From: a virus
Lineage: Duplodnaviria > Heunggongvirae > Uroviricota > Caudoviricetes
IMG/VR virus record: IMGVR_UViG_3300050821_002507
DNA: 28,049 bases
Strand: one strand, 5' to 3'
This document shows, piece after piece, positions 16,130 to 22,443 of the stretch. The notes under the pieces are model-generated. The model did no database searches. It worked only from the letters and a program-made list of their open reading frames with translations, and was not told the DNA's origin. The position numbers and the translations under genes were made by a program. Numbering within the stretch: the first letter of the stretch is position 1; the number at the start of each line of letters is the position of its first letter.

Positions 16130-16543
16130 CAGTTATTTTTAATACGGTATACCAGATAGTTATCGCGAGACCATAGTTCCCCCCTTTCTGCCTTCAGTCT
16201 GGACTTAACCTAGACTGAAGCCCCTAGTGAGGGGGAGACGGGAGACAACTTTCCCATCCGCATACTTGGTGCCCTTCGCCGGTAAACCGGACAAGTGCCA
16301 GTAGGATTTTTTCGGCTCCTACCCATGGCATCCCTCATCTAGCGGGACACCATGCTTCAACCGTTCCAGGGGGTTGCCCTGTCTGAAGGCCCAGGTCGCA
16401 AGGGGAGAGCGTTGCCTGGAATTGTTTTGGTTCGGGCAAATTGCCAGCGGCCCGCAACACCGTATGCACCTATTGACCTATAGGCACGGGCGGTGGGGCA
16501 TAACCGGCTCAGTCGGACGGGTGTCCGGGCTAGGGGACTTTTA

Positions 16544-16576
16544 GGGAACTATGCACTTGACATAGTTATAAATCGG
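16544..16576 (+). repeat. IRL of the outer element; contains the -35 box of the transposase promoter
   Basis: GGGAACTATGCACTTGACATAGTTATAAATCGG is the exact reverse complement of 22401-22433. TTGACA (16557-62)-N17-CATATT. Confidence 0.95.
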
Positions 16577-16610
16577 GTGCATATTGGCGGCCATAGAGAG
16601 GTTGCCCGCC

Positions 16611-17516
16611 ATGAATGTAGATCTGACAGACCCGATTTTTCACGATGAAAACAAGGCTCGCGAGCACCTTGAGGCGCAGCGCTGGCCCGATGGCCCGTTC
16701 TGCCCGCATTGCGGCGAGGTCGATAACATTTGCCGATTACATGGCAAGTCCCACCGCCCCGGCCTGTTCCAGTGCAACTCATGCCTTCAGGCATTTACGG
16801 TTATGGTCGGCTCGGTTTTCGAGTCGTCGCATATCCCGCTGACCAAGTGGGTACTGGCCTTTCACCTGATGGCCGCGAGCAAGAAGGGTATGAGTGCCCT
16901 ACAGCTACAGCGGATGCTCGGCCTTGGCTCCTACCGGTCGGCTTGGTTCATGTGCCACCGTATCCGTGAGGCCATGAAGCCGGCCAAGCCAAGCCCGTTG
17001 GGTGGCCCTAAGAAGGTTGTCGAGGCAGACGAGACCTTCATCGGCGGCAAAGCCAAGAACCGCGCCTACGCCAAGAAGCCCCCAAAGAAAGAGGCGGTCT
17101 TTGCGTTGGTCGAGCGGGACGGCGAAAGCCGCTCATTCCATGTCGCCAACGTGAAGGCAAAGACCTTGCGCGAAGCCATCGTCAAGACGGCAGACCGTAA
17201 GTCATTCCTGATGACCGACGAATCGCCGTCCTACGAAACGGTTGGCGCAGAGTTTGCCCTTCACGCCACGGTCAACCATTCGCAGAATGAATACGTGCGC
17301 GCCGACTGGCACACGAACACGGTGGAAAGCCGTTTCGCTCTGATGAAGCGCGCCGTCTATGGGACGCACCATTCAGTCAGTCAGGCCCATCTGCACCGCT
17401 ATTTAGTCGAATGGGACTACAAGTGGAACACCCGCAAGATGAAGGATGGGGAACGTGCCGCGCTTGCCGTCTATGGTGCCGGTGGCAAGCGTCTCACGTA
17501 CCGCAATCCTAACTGA
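16611..17516 (+). CDS. IS1595-family (ISXO2-like) DDE transposase
   Basis: Zn ribbon CPHCG..CNSC, HTH region, VEADET, MTDE, NTVESRF and HLHRYL.E motifs. AGAGG RBS before ATG 16611. Confidence 0.97.
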   Translation: MNVDLTDPIFHDENKAREHLEAQRWPDGPFCPHCGEVDNICRLHGKSHRPGLFQCNSCLQAFTVMVGSVFESSHIPLTKWVLAFHLMAASKKGMSALQLQRMLGLGSYRSAWFMCHRIREAMKPAKPSPLGGPKKVVEADETFIGGKAKNRAYAKKPPKKEAVFALVERDGESRSFHVANVKAKTLREAIVKTADRKSFLMTDESPSYETVGAEFALHATVNHSQNEYVRADWHTNTVESRFALMKRAVYGTHHSVSQAHLHRYLVEWDYKWNTRKMKDGERAALAVYGAGGKRLTYRNPN

Positions 17517-17597
17517 GCCCAAGACAAATCAAGCAGAAGGCAAAGCGCTTTCTGCGGTGGAGAAAACGCAAGGGTCGGGCATGACGCTCGGCCCTTG
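17513..17597 (+). other. Basic mini-ORF (CTG start, LSPRQIKQKAKRFLRWRKRKGRA) whose stop lies in the loop of a hairpin (17569-17597)
   Basis: CTGA overlaps the transposase stop. The peptide and hairpin are conserved after the second transposase. Confidence 0.45.
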
Positions 17598-17642
17598 TTT
17601 CGTTATGCTAAGTCTATAAGTTGGCTTCGGAGTTGCATAAAA

Positions 17643-17957
17643 ATGACGATCAAGACTTATGTAGCGCTCGATGATGGGACGACAGTTTTGGTCGAAACCA
17701 TCGAGCACGAAGGAGACCTCTGGCTTGTGCCAAAATGGATCGCCACGTCATTCCCAAACATGCACAAGCCAGCCCGAATGATTCGGATGCCGAAAGATCG
17801 GCTCCAGGACCTCGGCCATGATTTTCTCGCAAGCGGGATTCATGCACATAAACTAGACGGTCAAGTGTCCAAAGTTTTGTTGGACGTGGCCAACCCGTTG
17901 CAATCAGACCAGCCGTTCGACGTTCTAGAGGCTCCGGAGTTATTGATTCGTCGATGA
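17643..17957 (+). CDS. Passenger hypothetical protein (TIEHEGDLWLVP motif)
   Basis: GGAG upstream of ATG 17643; 104 aa; first gene after the hairpin. Confidence 0.65.
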   Translation: MTIKTYVALDDGTTVLVETIEHEGDLWLVPKWIATSFPNMHKPARMIRMPKDRLQDLGHDFLASGIHAHKLDGQVSKVLLDVANPLQSDQPFDVLEAPELLIRR

Positions 17958-17999
17958 ATTGTTGATTTCGAATCACTCTGTGTACCATTTCTTCCTTCC

Positions 18000-18231
18000 T
18001 CAATTCCGAAAACCTCTAATTGCCCATCCCAAAGCCGAACCGAACGCCAGCACAAGCACGGGAGGGATCAGGGCAATTTTGATGGCTGTTTGAATGGCGA
18101 TCTTTCTAGAGCCGAGAAGTTCAAGTTGTAAGTCAGATATAATCGTGCCCTGCGGCGGGTCAGGGGGCGGTAGGCTTAAAACCGCTACCGTACCAACCGC
18201 ACCAATCCAAAGTACGGAGAGGACAATCCAC
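18000..18231 (-). pseudogene. 3' part of a two-TM membrane protein gene interrupted by the inner IS (5' part at 21326-21362)
   Basis: Removing the inner element and one TSD restores an 86-aa ORF MRFARGFLRLWIVLSVLWIGAV...GSALGWAIRGFRN, paralogous to 20038..20340. Confidence 0.9.
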
Positions 18232-18273
18232 CCCAATTATATCGTTGACATCACAAGCTCTATATGCTGTATT
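18232..18273 (+). promoter_or_regulatory. IRL of the inner element with transposase promoter TTGACA-N17-TGTATT
   Basis: -35 at 18245-50 inside the IR; -10 at 18268-73. Confidence 0.7.
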
Positions 18274-18300
18274 GAGGCCATCACACAGGGATCGATGGTC

Positions 18301-19248
18301 ATGGACACGTTTTCAGCCCCGCATTTCCACAATGACGAAGCTGCCAGAGCCTATCTGGAAGCCCTGCGTTGGCCCGATGGTCCGGTCTGCCCGCATTGTG
18401 GCTCGGTCAATCACGCCTATGTGATTAATCCTGCCGGCACCTATCGCTGCGCAGAAAAGGAATGCCGGGGGAACTTCTCGGTCACAATGAATTCTCCCAT
18501 GGAGCGCAGCCATATCGCTCTGCACAAGTGGGTCCAAGCATTCCATCTAATGGCGTCCAGCAAGAAAGGCGTCTCAGCCCACCAATTGCACCGGACTCTG
18601 GAAATCACGTATCGCTCGGCATGGTTCATGGCGCACCGCATTCGCGAGTGTATGCGATCGGGCGGTCTCGCCCCGATGGGTGGCGATGGCCAGATCGTTG
18701 AGGCCGATGAAACATATTATGGCCCGGTCGATAACCCGCGTACCGAAACGACCATCGGTCGGCCGTTCACGAAGCGTGGCAAAACCGGTCCAGCCAATAA
18801 GCGCCCGATCCTCGCGCTGGTCGAGCGCGGCGGCAAGGTTCGCACGTTCCATGTGCCGGTTGCCGATCAGAAAACGGTCGAGAAGATCGTCACGGAAAAC
18901 ATCGCTCGCGAGTCACGGCTGCACACCGATGAAAGCCGCCTCTATTTCAACGCGGCCGATCATTTTGCCGCGCACAAGACCGTGAAGCACACCGCGAAGG
19001 AATACGCGCGGCGCGAAGACGGAGAAAACATCCACTGCAATTCTGCGGAAGGTTACTTCTCGATTTTCAAGCGCGGCATGAAGGGCATCTATCAGCACTG
19101 CGACGAAAAGCATTTACACAGATATTTGTCGGAATTCGATTTCCGCTACAATCACCGAGTCCGGCTCGGATACGACGATGGGGAACGTGCAGCCATGGCG
19201 GTCAAGAACGCGACCGGCAAGCGGCTGACGTACCGGCTCACTGACTAA
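18301..19248 (+). CDS. IS1595-family (ISXO2-like) DDE transposase
   Basis: CPHCG Zn ribbon, VEADETY, LHTDE, NSAEGYF and HLHRYLSEFDFRYN. Start at 18301 or 18295; the ORF-track start 18094 lies outside the IR. Confidence 0.97.
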   Translation: MDTFSAPHFHNDEAARAYLEALRWPDGPVCPHCGSVNHAYVINPAGTYRCAEKECRGNFSVTMNSPMERSHIALHKWVQAFHLMASSKKGVSAHQLHRTLEITYRSAWFMAHRIRECMRSGGLAPMGGDGQIVEADETYYGPVDNPRTETTIGRPFTKRGKTGPANKRPILALVERGGKVRTFHVPVADQKTVEKIVTENIARESRLHTDESRLYFNAADHFAAHKTVKHTAKEYARREDGENIHCNSAEGYFSIFKRGMKGIYQHCDEKHLHRYLSEFDFRYNHRVRLGYDDGERAAMAVKNATGKRLTYRLTD

Positions 19249-19344
19249 GCCTGTTTTCAGGCATAAGGCCGCGCGGTTTCTGCGCTGGCGCAAGAAACTC
19301 CCCAAGAAGAAACGCAAGGGCCGAGCATGACGCTCGGCCCTTGC
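19241..19344 (+). other. Basic mini-ORF (CTG start, LTKPVFRHKAARFLRWRKKLPKKKRKGRA) ending in a 13-bp hairpin (19314-19344)
   Basis: Perfect stem GCAAGGGCCGAGC-atgac-GCTCGGCCCTTGC; homologous to 17513-17597. Confidence 0.45.
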
Positions 19345-19383
19345 TTCGCTATCCTGGCGGTGCCAACCAACTAGGAGCGAGTC

Positions 19384-19590
19384 ATGGCTAAACAGATTGC
19401 GCCCGCCTACGCCCTTTCTCTCTGCGTCGTTCTCGCTCTTCATAAAACTGATCCCAAATTTCTTGCACTCTTACGGTCCACCGTGGCGGATTTCCAGAAG
19501 ACTCAGCCCAAGGACGGGATAACATGGGAGACTCTTGAGCTTTTTTTGCGCGCCCTATACGACTCTGAGATTTTTGTAAAATCGTCTTAG
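19384..19590 (+). CDS. Passenger hypothetical protein, 68 aa
   Basis: AGGAG RBS 7 nt upstream; same slot as 17643..17957 in the outer element. Confidence 0.6.
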   Translation: MAKQIAPAYALSLCVVLALHKTDPKFLALLRSTVADFQKTQPKDGITWETLELFLRALYDSEIFVKSS

Positions 19591-19618
19591 TTTCTTTTGT
19601 TGCCATTGGTTTTCCCCG

Positions 19619-20041
19619 TTAATCCGCTACCTTGGTCCACCGAACTTCAATAGACTTGATTTTTAAATCGTCGGCCGGATTGAGCAGAGTCAGGCCGGTA
19701 GTGTCGAACTCTTTTTGCTCTTTTTGCCAAGCAATTGCGGGAACGATGTACCTCGCTGCGTTATATGCGATCACGGTTGCCTGAAAGTGGCACCCTTTGT
19801 CGCCAAGTGGTGCATGTCCCCAATCACAGTCTTTCGGTTTGATACCAATGTTAACTTGGTCGAGGCTGACTTTGTATTTCGCGGAATACCAGATGGAATC
19901 CATCCATGTGTCGCCGGGGCCTAGCCAAACAGTAGCCACTAAGACCGCGACAAAAATCCAGCCCCCGTACAAGCCGAGCGTACCAATAAATGCAAAAAAC
20001 GCCCTCACGTTGGCTCCAAACTCATCCAGTCGTGCATTCAC
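19619..20041 (-). CDS. Passenger membrane-anchored protein with a periplasmic Cys pair (KPKDCDWGHAPLGDKGCH)
   Basis: N-terminal hydrophobic segment; GTGA coupling to 20038..20340. Confidence 0.7.
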   Translation of the reverse strand: MNARLDEFGANVRAFFAFIGTLGLYGGWIFVAVLVATVWLGPGDTWMDSIWYSAKYKVSLDQVNIGIKPKDCDWGHAPLGDKGCHFQATVIAYNAARYIVPAIAWQKEQKEFDTTGLTLLNPADDLKIKSIEVRWTKVAD

Positions 20042-20340
20042 CGAAAACCTCTAAGCGCCCACCCCAATGCCGATCCTATCATCAACAATAGGACAGGGGG
20101 GATAAGAGCAATCTCGGTAGCGGTTTGAATGGCTCGCTGTCGATTAGCGGCGGCTTCTATGACCCATGGTGCGTCTGGTAACGAATCAGACTGCTGTTGA
20201 GCGCTTGGTTGCGGATTAAATTTCGCCCAAGGGTCAGCCGCCGGAAAATTCAATGTTGCCACGGCAATCACCGCACCGATCCATAACACAGAAAGGACAA
20301 GCCACAGTCGGAGAAATCCGCGTGCGATTCGCAATGCCAT
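20038..20340 (-). CDS. Passenger two-TM membrane protein (intact paralogue of the gene the element interrupts)
   Basis: RGFLRLWLVLSVLWIGAV...AIQTA..IALIPPVL.L..GSALGWA.RGFR. Confidence 0.8.
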   Translation of the reverse strand: MALRIARGFLRLWLVLSVLWIGAVIAVATLNFPAADPWAKFNPQPSAQQQSDSLPDAPWVIEAAANRQRAIQTATEIALIPPVLLLMIGSALGWALRGFR

Positions 20341-20349
20341 CGCTGGTCC

Positions 20350-20511
20350 CTATCCCTTTTTACTCTTGGGACTCTTGACCGGCTTTCCTCTAGGCTTGCC
20401 GAGCTTCATTTCGGCCTGCGGCTTGGGCGGCATCTTGAACGCCGCTCGCAATGCCGCAGCCGCGCGCCGTTCGGTTTCTTCTCTTGTGAATTGGTCGAGG
20501 GGCTTGGCCAT
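20350..20511 (-). CDS. Unannotated 53-aa basic micro-protein, EETxRR family (copy A)
   Basis: Manual translation MAKPLDQFTREETERRAAAALRAAFKMPPKPQAEMKLGKPRGKPVKSPKSKKG; paralogous to 21359..21514. Confidence 0.75.
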   Translation of the reverse strand: MAKPLDQFTREETERRAAAALRAAFKMPPKPQAEMKLGKPRGKPVKSPKSKKG

Positions 20512-21124
20512 GGCTGCACCACTAAGCGAGGAGGATGAATACGATCAACAGTTCAGAAACATTTGCTTCAATATGGGAATTGCTCTTGTAGAATGGCAGC
20601 GTCTTGAAGACCAGCATTACGGGCTTTTCCGACATTTGACTGGCATCCAGCGACAAGACCTTGCTTCAATTGTGTACCATAGCACGGAGAGCTTTGACGC
20701 GCGACGTGTAATGGTGGGTCACCTAGCGCGAGCTTTCATCGACCAATTGAACGACAAACAGCAGGCGAAAGCTCGTAGGCAAATAGCTGCTATTGATAAG
20801 GGGCTGGCAGATGCAAGCAAAAATCGCAATAAAATAGCCCACCATGCAATGGAATATAAAATCTCTTCCATGAAAGAGAACGATGACGGCAGCATTACAA
20901 TCGAATACGGGCCTCCTAGGCTGCAGCAATCATCATCCAATATATTGAGCCGGATAGAGGGGCGCGGTCCGGACCAGAAGGGGCACGACCTGGGGGTAAC
21001 CGAACTACAGACATACAGAGATGAATTTAAAAAGGTGCAGGCGCAAATTATCGCCTTCAATCACTGGCTGGCTTTAGTGACGCCTCCGCAGCCGCTGCAA
21101 TCAGGCGCTCCACAATCGACATAG
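20510..21124 (+). CDS. Passenger helical protein with HEPN-type Rx4H motif (RNKIAH)
   Basis: GAGGGG RBS 7 nt before ATG 20510. MGIAL.EWQ.LE helix and RNKIAH motif; 204 aa. Confidence 0.65.
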   Translation: MAAPLSEEDEYDQQFRNICFNMGIALVEWQRLEDQHYGLFRHLTGIQRQDLASIVYHSTESFDARRVMVGHLARAFIDQLNDKQQAKARRQIAAIDKGLADASKNRNKIAHHAMEYKISSMKENDDGSITIEYGPPRLQQSSSNILSRIEGRGPDQKGHDLGVTELQTYRDEFKKVQAQIIAFNHWLALVTPPQPLQSGAPQST

Positions 21125-21284
21125 CCCCCCATGGGCCGCCAATCCAAACGCGGCCATAGAAATCCGCCTCGTCCATCAACCTCTGAACCATCCTGCCAAT
21201 AGCAGCGTCGTCGGCCAGCAGATCGGCCCATTTCTGGTCAGGCTGGACTACTCCTGAATTCTGTAGCGTCGGCCTGTCGGTCAC
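21057..21284 (-). CDS. Small passenger protein adjacent to IRR (MTDRP...)
   Basis: AGGAG RBS before GTG 21284; convergent overlap with the HEPN gene; same slot as 22101..22292. Confidence 0.55.
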   Translation of the reverse strand: MTDRPTLQNSGVVQPDQKWADLLADDAAIGRMVQRLMDEADFYGRVWIGGPWGAMSIVERLIAAAAEASLKPASD

Positions 21285-21294
21285 ATACTACTCC

Positions 21295-21325
21295 TAGAGC
21301 TTGTGATGTCAACGATATAATTGGG
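21295..21325 (-). repeat. IRR of the inner element
   Basis: Exact reverse complement of 18232-18262. Confidence 0.95.
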
Positions 21326-21362
21326 CAATCCACAATCTGAGAAATCCGCGAGCGAACCTCAC
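21326..21362 (-). pseudogene. 5' part of the interrupted membrane protein gene
   Basis: GTG 21362 overlaps the TGA of 21359..21514 (GTGA). Reads MRFARGFLRLWI, then enters IRR and stops. Confidence 0.85.
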
Positions 21363-21514
21363 GGGTTGGCCTTGCGTGGCTCGGGACTCTTCTTCTTTTT
21401 CCCGGTAGGCTTATGCGGCTTTGGCGGCGTGTTCAGCGCAACGCGCAAGGCGGCGTTGGCGCGGCGTTTGGTCTCTTCGGTGCTGTAGAAGTCGGTCGGT
21501 TTGTTTTTGCTCAT
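21359..21514 (-). CDS. Unannotated 51-aa basic micro-protein, EETxRR family (copy B)
   Basis: Manual translation MSKNKPTDFYSTEETKRRANAALRVALNTPPKPHKPTGKKKKSPEPRKANP. Extended -10 (TGcTATCAT) 7 nt before the ATG suggests a leaderless mRNA. Confidence 0.75.
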   Translation of the reverse strand: MSKNKPTDFYSTEETKRRANAALRVALNTPPKPHKPTGKKKKSPEPRKANP

Positions 21515-21529
21515 GCAGCGGATGATAGC

Positions 21530-22147
21530 ATGACGGTGGTATCAAAAAAAGCGCGAAAGGAAGCTCTGGCTCGCGCCAAGGAGCGCCTAAATGCCCGGAG
21601 CTTCGGGAATGATTCGTGGCAGGTGATACTGCAATACACCGGAGATTCCTCGAATCTTCAAACATCTGATAGAGCAACCGCGCTTGTACTGGGTGCCATC
21701 TTAGAGCAAGGGCTTGAACTTGCGATTCTTTCGCATTGCGTTCTCGGGTGGAACACGCCGGAATCGGAGTCGGAACAGAGAAAGCTATTTGGTGGAGGTG
21801 AAGACGCCCCTATAAATTTCGCCGTAAAAATTAGGCTTGCCTATGCGCTCGGCGTATATGGGCCCAACACTAGAGATGATTTGGACCTGATGAGGCATAT
21901 CCGCAACCTTTTTGCCCACGATAGGGGCCACCTGACTTTCAATGATGAAATAGCATCAAAACTTTGTGTCCAAATAAAATGGATCGATGCGTTTCCGTGG
22001 GGAGGCGTTACTGGAAATGCGCCAGCGTCTCCCCGAGATCAGTACGTAGAAACAGTCAAGCACTTTTTCCCATTTCTAACGGTGGGAGTTGGCAGGCCAA
22101 TCAAATACCTGGATTCTCCTTTTGCTCTTTCTGTAATGTATGCCTAG
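21530..22147 (+). CDS. Passenger MtlR-like HEPN-superfamily protein (RNLFAH)
   Basis: SDRATALVLGAILE..LE, FAVKIRLAYALG and DLDLMRHIRNLFAH match the MtlR/HEPN pattern. Confidence 0.75.
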   Translation: MTVVSKKARKEALARAKERLNARSFGNDSWQVILQYTGDSSNLQTSDRATALVLGAILEQGLELAILSHCVLGWNTPESESEQRKLFGGGEDAPINFAVKIRLAYALGVYGPNTRDDLDLMRHIRNLFAHDRGHLTFNDEIASKLCVQIKWIDAFPWGGVTGNAPASPRDQYVETVKHFFPFLTVGVGRPIKYLDSPFALSVMYA

Positions 22148-22292
22148 CCCTCCACATCGCTTCAAAAGCAACCAACGCGCACACTCCTGGGTCGTCGGTA
22201 CATCCGATTGCAAGGAGAGCCCGTTCGCCGGCCTCAATCATTTCGTCCGTGACTTCGATTTCAGCAGAACGTGTGTCGGGTGCTTGTTCCAT
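22101..22292 (-). CDS. Small passenger protein adjacent to IRR (EIEVTDEMIEAG motif)
   Basis: 63 aa. Candidate promoter TTGCTT (22321-26)-N17-TATAGG (22298-303) just upstream. Convergent overlap with the HEPN gene. Confidence 0.6.
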   Translation of the reverse strand: MEQAPDTRSAEIEVTDEMIEAGERALLAIGCTDDPGVCALVAFEAMWRARHTLQKEQKENPGI

Positions 22293-22400
22293 CGCTCCCT
22301 ATAACACAAGTTATTCTACAAAGCAAATTCTCGCGAGTAATTAAGCTCCCGTATGGACCGGGAGTTAGGCCGATGGCAAGCCAACAACTTGCAATCTAGG

Positions 22401-22433
22401 CCGATTTATAACTATGTCAAGTGCATAGTTCCC
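22401..22433 (-). repeat. IRR of the outer element
   Basis: Exact reverse complement of 16544-16576; followed by the TSD GACTTTTA. Confidence 0.95.
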
Positions 22434-22443
22434 GACTTTTACG

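Follow-up and report, generated by a model that had tools for sequence, protein, structure and literature searches.

Insertion sequences (IS) are usually assumed to carry a transposase alone, and most members of the IS1595 family, as catalogued in ISfinder, need only that enzyme to transpose. Siguier, Gagnevin and Chandler reportedly described in 2009 a subgroup of this family, ISNwi1, with passenger genes. According to ISfinder, the ends of the ISNwi1 subgroup follow the consensus ggnnatTAT and its transposases have a DDEK catalytic signature. Small proteins that block HEPN RNases are also familiar from phages and plasmids; for example, the attacking phage T4 makes Dmd, a folded protein that specifically inhibits RnlA and LsoA.

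The closest described systems fall into three groups. Transporter IS (tIS) have so far been known only from two families, IS1595 and IS66 (TnCentral preprint, doi 10.1101/2021.05.26.445724). In transposons of the Tn3 family, toxin-type genes, including HEPN genes, are integral and exchangeable, lie beside the transposition genes; each can be recognised as one half of a type II pair, the other gene encoding the cognate antitoxin (PMC7157771). The HEPN superfamily is defined by an Rx4-6H motif with a polar residue after the R; its families MtlR, AbiU2, RiboL-PSP, Cthe_2314 and MAE_28990 are helical bundles with Rx4H, N or D after the R and an association with conflict systems, and some members of the MtlR family are presumed to lack catalytic activity (PMC3710099).

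Here, we analysed a window of 28,049 nt of phage DNA (Caudoviricetes; IMG/VR record IMGVR_UViG_3300050821_002507), in which two micro genes each adjoin a putative HEPN gene. We found in the literature no published tIS passenger set in which a fixed micro gene is placed start-to-start, in a set geometry, with a HEPN-type effector that can be exchanged.

Two nested IS1595 elements in a phage genome

The window contains an outer element, a (16544-22433), and an inner element, b (18232-21325), both of which are IS1595 transporter IS whose inverted repeats and 8-bp target duplications are perfect (Table 1). Like other IS1595 tIS, each encodes one zinc-ribbon DDE transposase and has short terminal inverted repeats, an 8-bp target duplication and passenger genes unrelated to transposition within the repeats; sizes are 1.9-3.8 kb. 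Unlike other tIS, the two elements are nested and lie in a phage genome. Both transposases score above the NF033547 cut-off, and the repeat tips, GGGAACTAT and CCCAATTAT, may resemble the ISNwi1 end. The whole unit is mobile. No deposited phage matched the region in a DNA search.

Each micro gene leads into a two-TM gene, as the original prediction had it. The two are separated by a 9-nt gap in copy A; in copy B, the micro stop overlaps, in a GTGA, the GTG (21362-21360) that opens a paralogous two-TM gene, which is now split by element b. In-silico removal of 18232-21333 restored one open frame matching the copy-A two-TM protein, and element b jumped into the two-TM gene of element a. The terminator-like hairpin of element b has a counterpart in element a at 17568-17597. 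The gene order of each element is left repeat, transposase, optional middle slot, micro gene, effector slot, small convergent gene and right repeat. The original prediction was right about the genes and the geometry of the micro/HEPN pairs but did not set them in the nested IS1595 frame, the transposons having been noted in a separate finding.

Table 1. Features of the two nested elements, by position in the window
Feature	Position	Strand	Remarks
Element a, left target-site duplication	16536-16543		GACTTTTA; identical to 22434-22441
Element a, left inverted repeat	16544-16576	plus	33 nt, 100% complementary to 22401-22433; inward promoter-like TTGACA-N17-CATATT
Element a, IS1595-family transposase	16611-17516	plus	NCBIfam NF033547, E 1.4e-56
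Element a, middle-slot ORF of unknown function	17644-17957	plus	ATG within a 120-aa frame
Element a, two-TM gene, 3' part	18003-18231	minus	Cut by element b; 5' part at 21334-21362
Element b, left inverted repeat	18232-18262	plus	31 nt, 100% complementary; target duplication CAATCCAC at 18224-18231
Element b, IS1595-family transposase	18295-19248	plus	NCBIfam NF033547, E 6.3e-55
Terminator-like G+C-rich hairpin and T-rich run	19314-19344	minus	End of the leftward cargo genes of element b
Element b, middle-slot 68-aa ORF of unknown function	19384-19590	plus	ORF call
140-aa ORF of unknown function	19619-20041	minus	One hydrophobic segment; its GTG overlaps the stop of the two-TM gene
Two-TM protein gene	20038-20340	minus	Optional middle-slot cargo; 9 nt after micro A
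Micro-protein A gene	20350-20511	minus	53 aa; homologue alignment and codon-position entropy
HEPN A (putative)	20510-21124	plus	204 aa; RNKIAH at residues 106-111; CATG common with micro A
75-aa convergent ORF	21057-21284	minus	At the right end of element b, with its start 41 nt in from the repeat tip
Element b, right inverted repeat	21295-21325	minus	Followed by target duplication CAATCCAC at 21326-21333
Micro-protein B gene	21359-21514	minus	51 aa; homologue alignment and codon-position entropy
HEPN B (putative)	21530-22147	plus	205 aa; MtlR-like; RNLFAH at residues 125-130; 15 nt from micro B
63-aa small convergent gene	22101-22292	minus	EIEVTDEMIEAG motif; third recurrent module gene; overlaps the last 47 nt of HEPN B
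Element a, right inverted repeat	22401-22433	minus	Inward TTGACA-N16-TAGATT; followed by target duplication GACTTTTA at 22434-22441

The micro genes encode paralogous proteins

Micro-proteins A and B are paralogues, with 26 of 51 residues identical (51%; BLASTP, E 3e-13). The paralogy, the EETxRR motif and the Lys-rich tail had all been claimed from the sequence alone, and re-reading the sequence confirmed them together with every coordinate given. Across the 27-codon micro core of 36 distinct homologues, the entropy at codon positions 1, 2 and 3 was 0.96, 0.91 and 1.63, respectively. The core thus varies mainly at third codon positions, which indicates that the genes are translated; the micro gene is under selection at the protein level.

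In the AF2 model of micro B, a single helix (residues 12-28) is followed by an extended basic tail, and the micro-proteins are probably built from one amphipathic helix, a TPPKP segment and a Lys-rich tail, in this order. Scans of Pfam, PHROGs and NCBIfam found no family match for them, and a look-up of small proteins in the Protein Atlas returned unnamed clusters only. The predicted complex of HEPN B and micro B has a score of 0.00 and a partner pLDDT of 36-37, and it weighs neither way on binding. Among the sequencing runs listed, none of RNA contained the region, and the DNA matches were small shares of soil and peat metagenomes.

The adjoining genes encode putative HEPN proteins

HEPN A and HEPN B have no sequence relationship with each other, and R-N-x3-H is kept in both. 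Their motifs have the Rx4-6H form with a polar residue after the R, and the combined motif, fold-model and profile evidence supports the original assignment of both divergent genes to the HEPN superfamily, with Rx4H intact. In HEPN A, R106 and H111 are invariant (alignment A3). This protein matches Pfam AbiU2 weakly and has a single sequence relative among 5.8 billion proteins. Its AF2 model (pLDDT 85.6) matches the predicted structures of Cthe_2314-like, MAE_28990-like, RiboL-PSP and pEK499_p136 HEPN proteins (Foldseek; E 1.7e-4 to 1.9e-3, TM 0.47-0.57), and Foldseek and profile searches found no counterpart among solved structures. HEPN A thus models as a HEPN fold.

HEPN B matches Pfam MtlR (PF05068) with an E of 3.6e-4 and 20.9 bits, under the gathering cut-off of 25.2, and its family profile (A5) matches the solved MtlR chains 6kcr_A (2.8e-9) and 3brj_A (3.8e-6). 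Because eight slot proteins match MtlR (best E 6.5e-9) and the profile matches MtlR structures, we count HEPN B, on sequence grounds, as a relative of the MtlR family and not as MtlR proper. A homologue with 61% identity occupies the same slot in locus L005. The two proteins share with the HEPN families named above the Rx4H motif with N or D after the R, a predicted helical bundle and an association with conflict systems. Unlike those families, however, both fall below the Pfam cut-offs, and they have no MNT partner, no restriction-modification neighbourhood and no PADLOC match.

Micro gene and effector start at a fixed distance

The start-to-start geometry of micro gene and effector is fixed. 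In copy A, one CATG is common to the minus-strand ATG (20511-20509) and the plus-strand ATG (20510-20512), and in copy B, 15 nt (21515-21529) lie between the micro start and the HEPN ATG at 21530; both spacings had been predicted exactly, as the re-read coordinates confirm. Among the 29 head-to-head pairs of the family, the gap was -2 (CATG) in 16 and 14-15 nt in 7, and the effector 5' ends are thus locked to the micro gene, as had been proposed, in 23 of 29 pairs. By our own estimate, an in-frame CATG is expected by chance at a rate of about 1 in 12. The 2-nt overlap of the micro and effector genes is also present in JGI's own gene calls. In the co-directional variants, the cargo stops 0-13 nt ahead of the micro start.

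A promoter search of the cargo strand within the micro core found no conserved sigma-70-like site, and SD-like sequences were present upstream of only 12 of 29 genes, on either side. A leaderless-mRNA reading of the junction was dropped, since inspection of the upstream sequences showed no -10-like hexamer at the right distance.

Effectors change beside a constant micro gene

The micro profile matched 2,393 cluster representatives at E <= 0.001 and, in a six-frame genome search, 53 of 401 genomes of one alphaproteobacterial family. Pattern scans with the micro alignment gave at least two loci in the genome collection and at least one in the metagenome, and the six-frame search was used instead; locus L007, a weak match beside a transposase fragment, was excluded from the survey. 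In 37 of 46 loci, an IS1595 transposase gene faces the micro gene tail-to-tail, lying 27-2,114 bp beyond the micro stop and always convergent with it. Micro-effector pairs with no transposase within 4 kb were present in 7-9 loci. The repeats of sister elements enclose not only the transposase and the micro gene but also a further 690 bp or more. Related repeat tips were found in about 25 of these elements, and many have 8-bp duplications, which are exact in L005, L049 and L075 and, with the tip moved one base inward, in six more.

An Rx4H gene abuts the micro start in 36 of the 46 loci (33 head-to-head, 3 co-directional), and the remaining slots include HNH-like and RelA/SpoT proteins (one sister element matches RelA_SpoT at 2.1e-18). 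The survey of genes divergent to EETxRR homologues, which the original prediction had proposed as a check, therefore showed strong enrichment for effector-type genes. Across 35 cargo proteins with a mean identity of 12%, the R and the H are the only near-invariant columns. Pfam matches among the cargo were to MtlR (8), DUF4145 (2), RiboL-PSP (1), Abi_2 (1) and HNH_5 (1), and none of the 35 slot proteins matched the PADLOC 2.0 defence models at E <= 0.001.

Elements with 88-94% identical transposases have micro-proteins that are 63-82% identical and cargo that is unrelated. The DNA similarity between such elements consists of the left repeat and transposase, an island of about 95 bp in the micro gene, and the right repeat. 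In these comparisons, effector cassettes have been swapped beside a constant micro gene. Over all pairs, the micro-protein and the transposase are weakly correlated (Spearman 0.15, Mantel p 0.10), and the status of the micro gene as a backbone gene consequently rests on the closest pairs and the DNA mosaic. The micro-protein does not co-vary with the neighbouring effector, which alternates between unrelated folds. Thus, neither the partner co-variation nor the operon co-transcription of a type II toxin-antitoxin pair was found, the genes being divergent in the window and in 33 of 46 loci, with few co-directional cases.

Other small genes of the elements

The module contains a third recurrent small gene, the 63-aa convergent gene, which is present in 16-19 of 45 elements with codon-position entropies of 0.75, 0.79 and 1.39; the original prediction caught the micro and HEPN genes of this module but missed this one. 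As a cognate partner it was rejected, its similarity between elements being 37% where their HEPN genes are related and 35% where they are not. The 75-aa ORF at the corresponding end of element b lies downstream of a TTGACA-N16-TAGTAT site and is without the EITPEMIEAG-type motif. The two-TM gene, whose product had been suggested as a possible sensor, is not part of the family module: it was found in no other locus, and its relatives elsewhere sit away from any IS. Searches of Pfam, PHROGs and NCBIfam found no family match for the two-TM protein or for the 63-, 75- and 140-aa ORFs. The 68-aa ORF likewise has no family match, and the middle-slot ORF of element a has no Pfam match and is absent from other loci of the family.

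Discussion

We favour, with a probability of roughly 55%, the reading that the micro-protein is the product of a translated backbone gene of the IS lineage, conserved like the transposase, and acts as a cargo-independent control element beside exchangeable putative effectors in nested IS1595 elements. The gene at the micro start would be an exchangeable effector, usually a HEPN-type putative RNase, and an HNH-like nuclease or a RelA/SpoT enzyme in sister elements. These effectors may be toxins, or anti-phage or anti-competitor weapons, that pay for the transposon or stabilise it. The micro-protein would be made together with whatever occupies the slot, either via a common divergent control region or, in the co-directional variants, by stop-start coupling. 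It probably binds nucleic acid through its basic tail and may serve as a gate or a generic antidote on effector expression, and presumably not as a fold-specific protein antitoxin. Against this reading stand the presumed lack of catalysis in part of the MtlR family, the cargo proteins without a PADLOC match, the promoter search of the micro core that found no conserved site, the sparse SD-like sequences and the weak overall correlation between micro-protein and transposase. The fixed CATG geometry would offer a concrete, testable coupling device.

The arrangement resembles the Tn3-family toxin-antitoxin modules in that toxin-type genes, including HEPN genes, are integral and exchangeable and lie beside transposition genes. 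Unlike in those modules, the small partner matches no antitoxin family and is unchanged when the toxin changes, and the transposon is a minimal IS. Dmd of T4 is similar in being a protein of about 50-60 residues that is genetically paired with a HEPN RNase, a likeness drawn from description and not from sequence. In contrast to Dmd, the micro-protein is predicted to be a helix with a basic tail, it is encoded beside the putative RNase, and it is constant across unrelated effectors.

It is possible, though rather unlikely, that the micro-protein is an accessory or regulator of transposition, acting on the ends or the transposase and unrelated to the effector, which would adjoin it only because this is the spot where cargo inserts. 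Such a role fits a micro gene that, like the transposase and the repeats, stays conserved between two variable slots and that is always convergent with the transposase gene, and the modelled basic tail would suit DNA binding. However, no element was found with a transposase and a micro gene but without an effector, the right arm always being at least 690 bp, and the pairs that survive without a transposase also speak against it. An insertion site alone would hardly account for the exact CATG or 14-nt geometry, and most IS1595 members transpose with a transposase only.

A bolder idea, which we also consider unlikely, casts the micro-protein as a universal "safety catch", thanks to which a minimal transposon could have any toxic effector in its plug-in slot. 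It would neutralise unrelated folds indirectly, for example by shielding a common RNA target or by gating translation, and the back-to-back CATG or 14-nt starts would ensure that the catch is made whenever the effector is. If true, this would be cargo-independent immunity, which has not been described for toxin-antitoxin or defence systems.

The chances are slimmer still for control at the RNA level, in which a leftward transcript from a promoter-like site in the right repeat would run through the small convergent gene, antisense to HEPN, and into the micro gene; HEPN mRNA would then be kept low through antisense pairing or through transcriptional interference, with a lesser role for the peptide. 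In many sister elements, as in the window, both repeats have TTGACA-N16/17-TAGnnT sites that point inward, a minus-strand terminator-like hairpin lies just before the transposase gene, and the small convergent gene overlaps the 3' end of HEPN. The micro and HEPN start codons also overlap or nearly do so, and their 5' regions must therefore overlap. However, these promoter and terminator sites are no more than matches to a consensus, and the third-position variation reflects selection on the micro peptide, not on the DNA alone. In several elements the effector is co-directional, so there is no antisense there.

The main reading of the original prediction, a cognate antitoxin that would inhibit the neighbouring HEPN RNase by binding it in a type II-like manner, is improbable: the micro gene is small and tightly linked to its effector, the pair persists without a transposase and the co-directional variants are ordered like toxin-first pairs, but one conserved micro-protein stands beside two unrelated HEPN types, HNH-like proteins and a RelA/SpoT enzyme, which argues against a specific protein antitoxin and fits a generic control or backbone gene better, as do the missing co-variation with cargo, the usually divergent arrangement and the predicted build of one helix and a disordered basic tail.

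The IS lineage is common. Its slot takes up many effectors of nuclease and alarmone type next to the one invariant micro-protein, and in the present case the lineage has entered a phage. Should the effectors prove to be toxins or defence genes, such small elements would be a cheap vehicle to spread and shuffle them between chromosomes and phages, and the invariant micro-protein would be a handle for the discovery of new effectors from their neighbourhoods.

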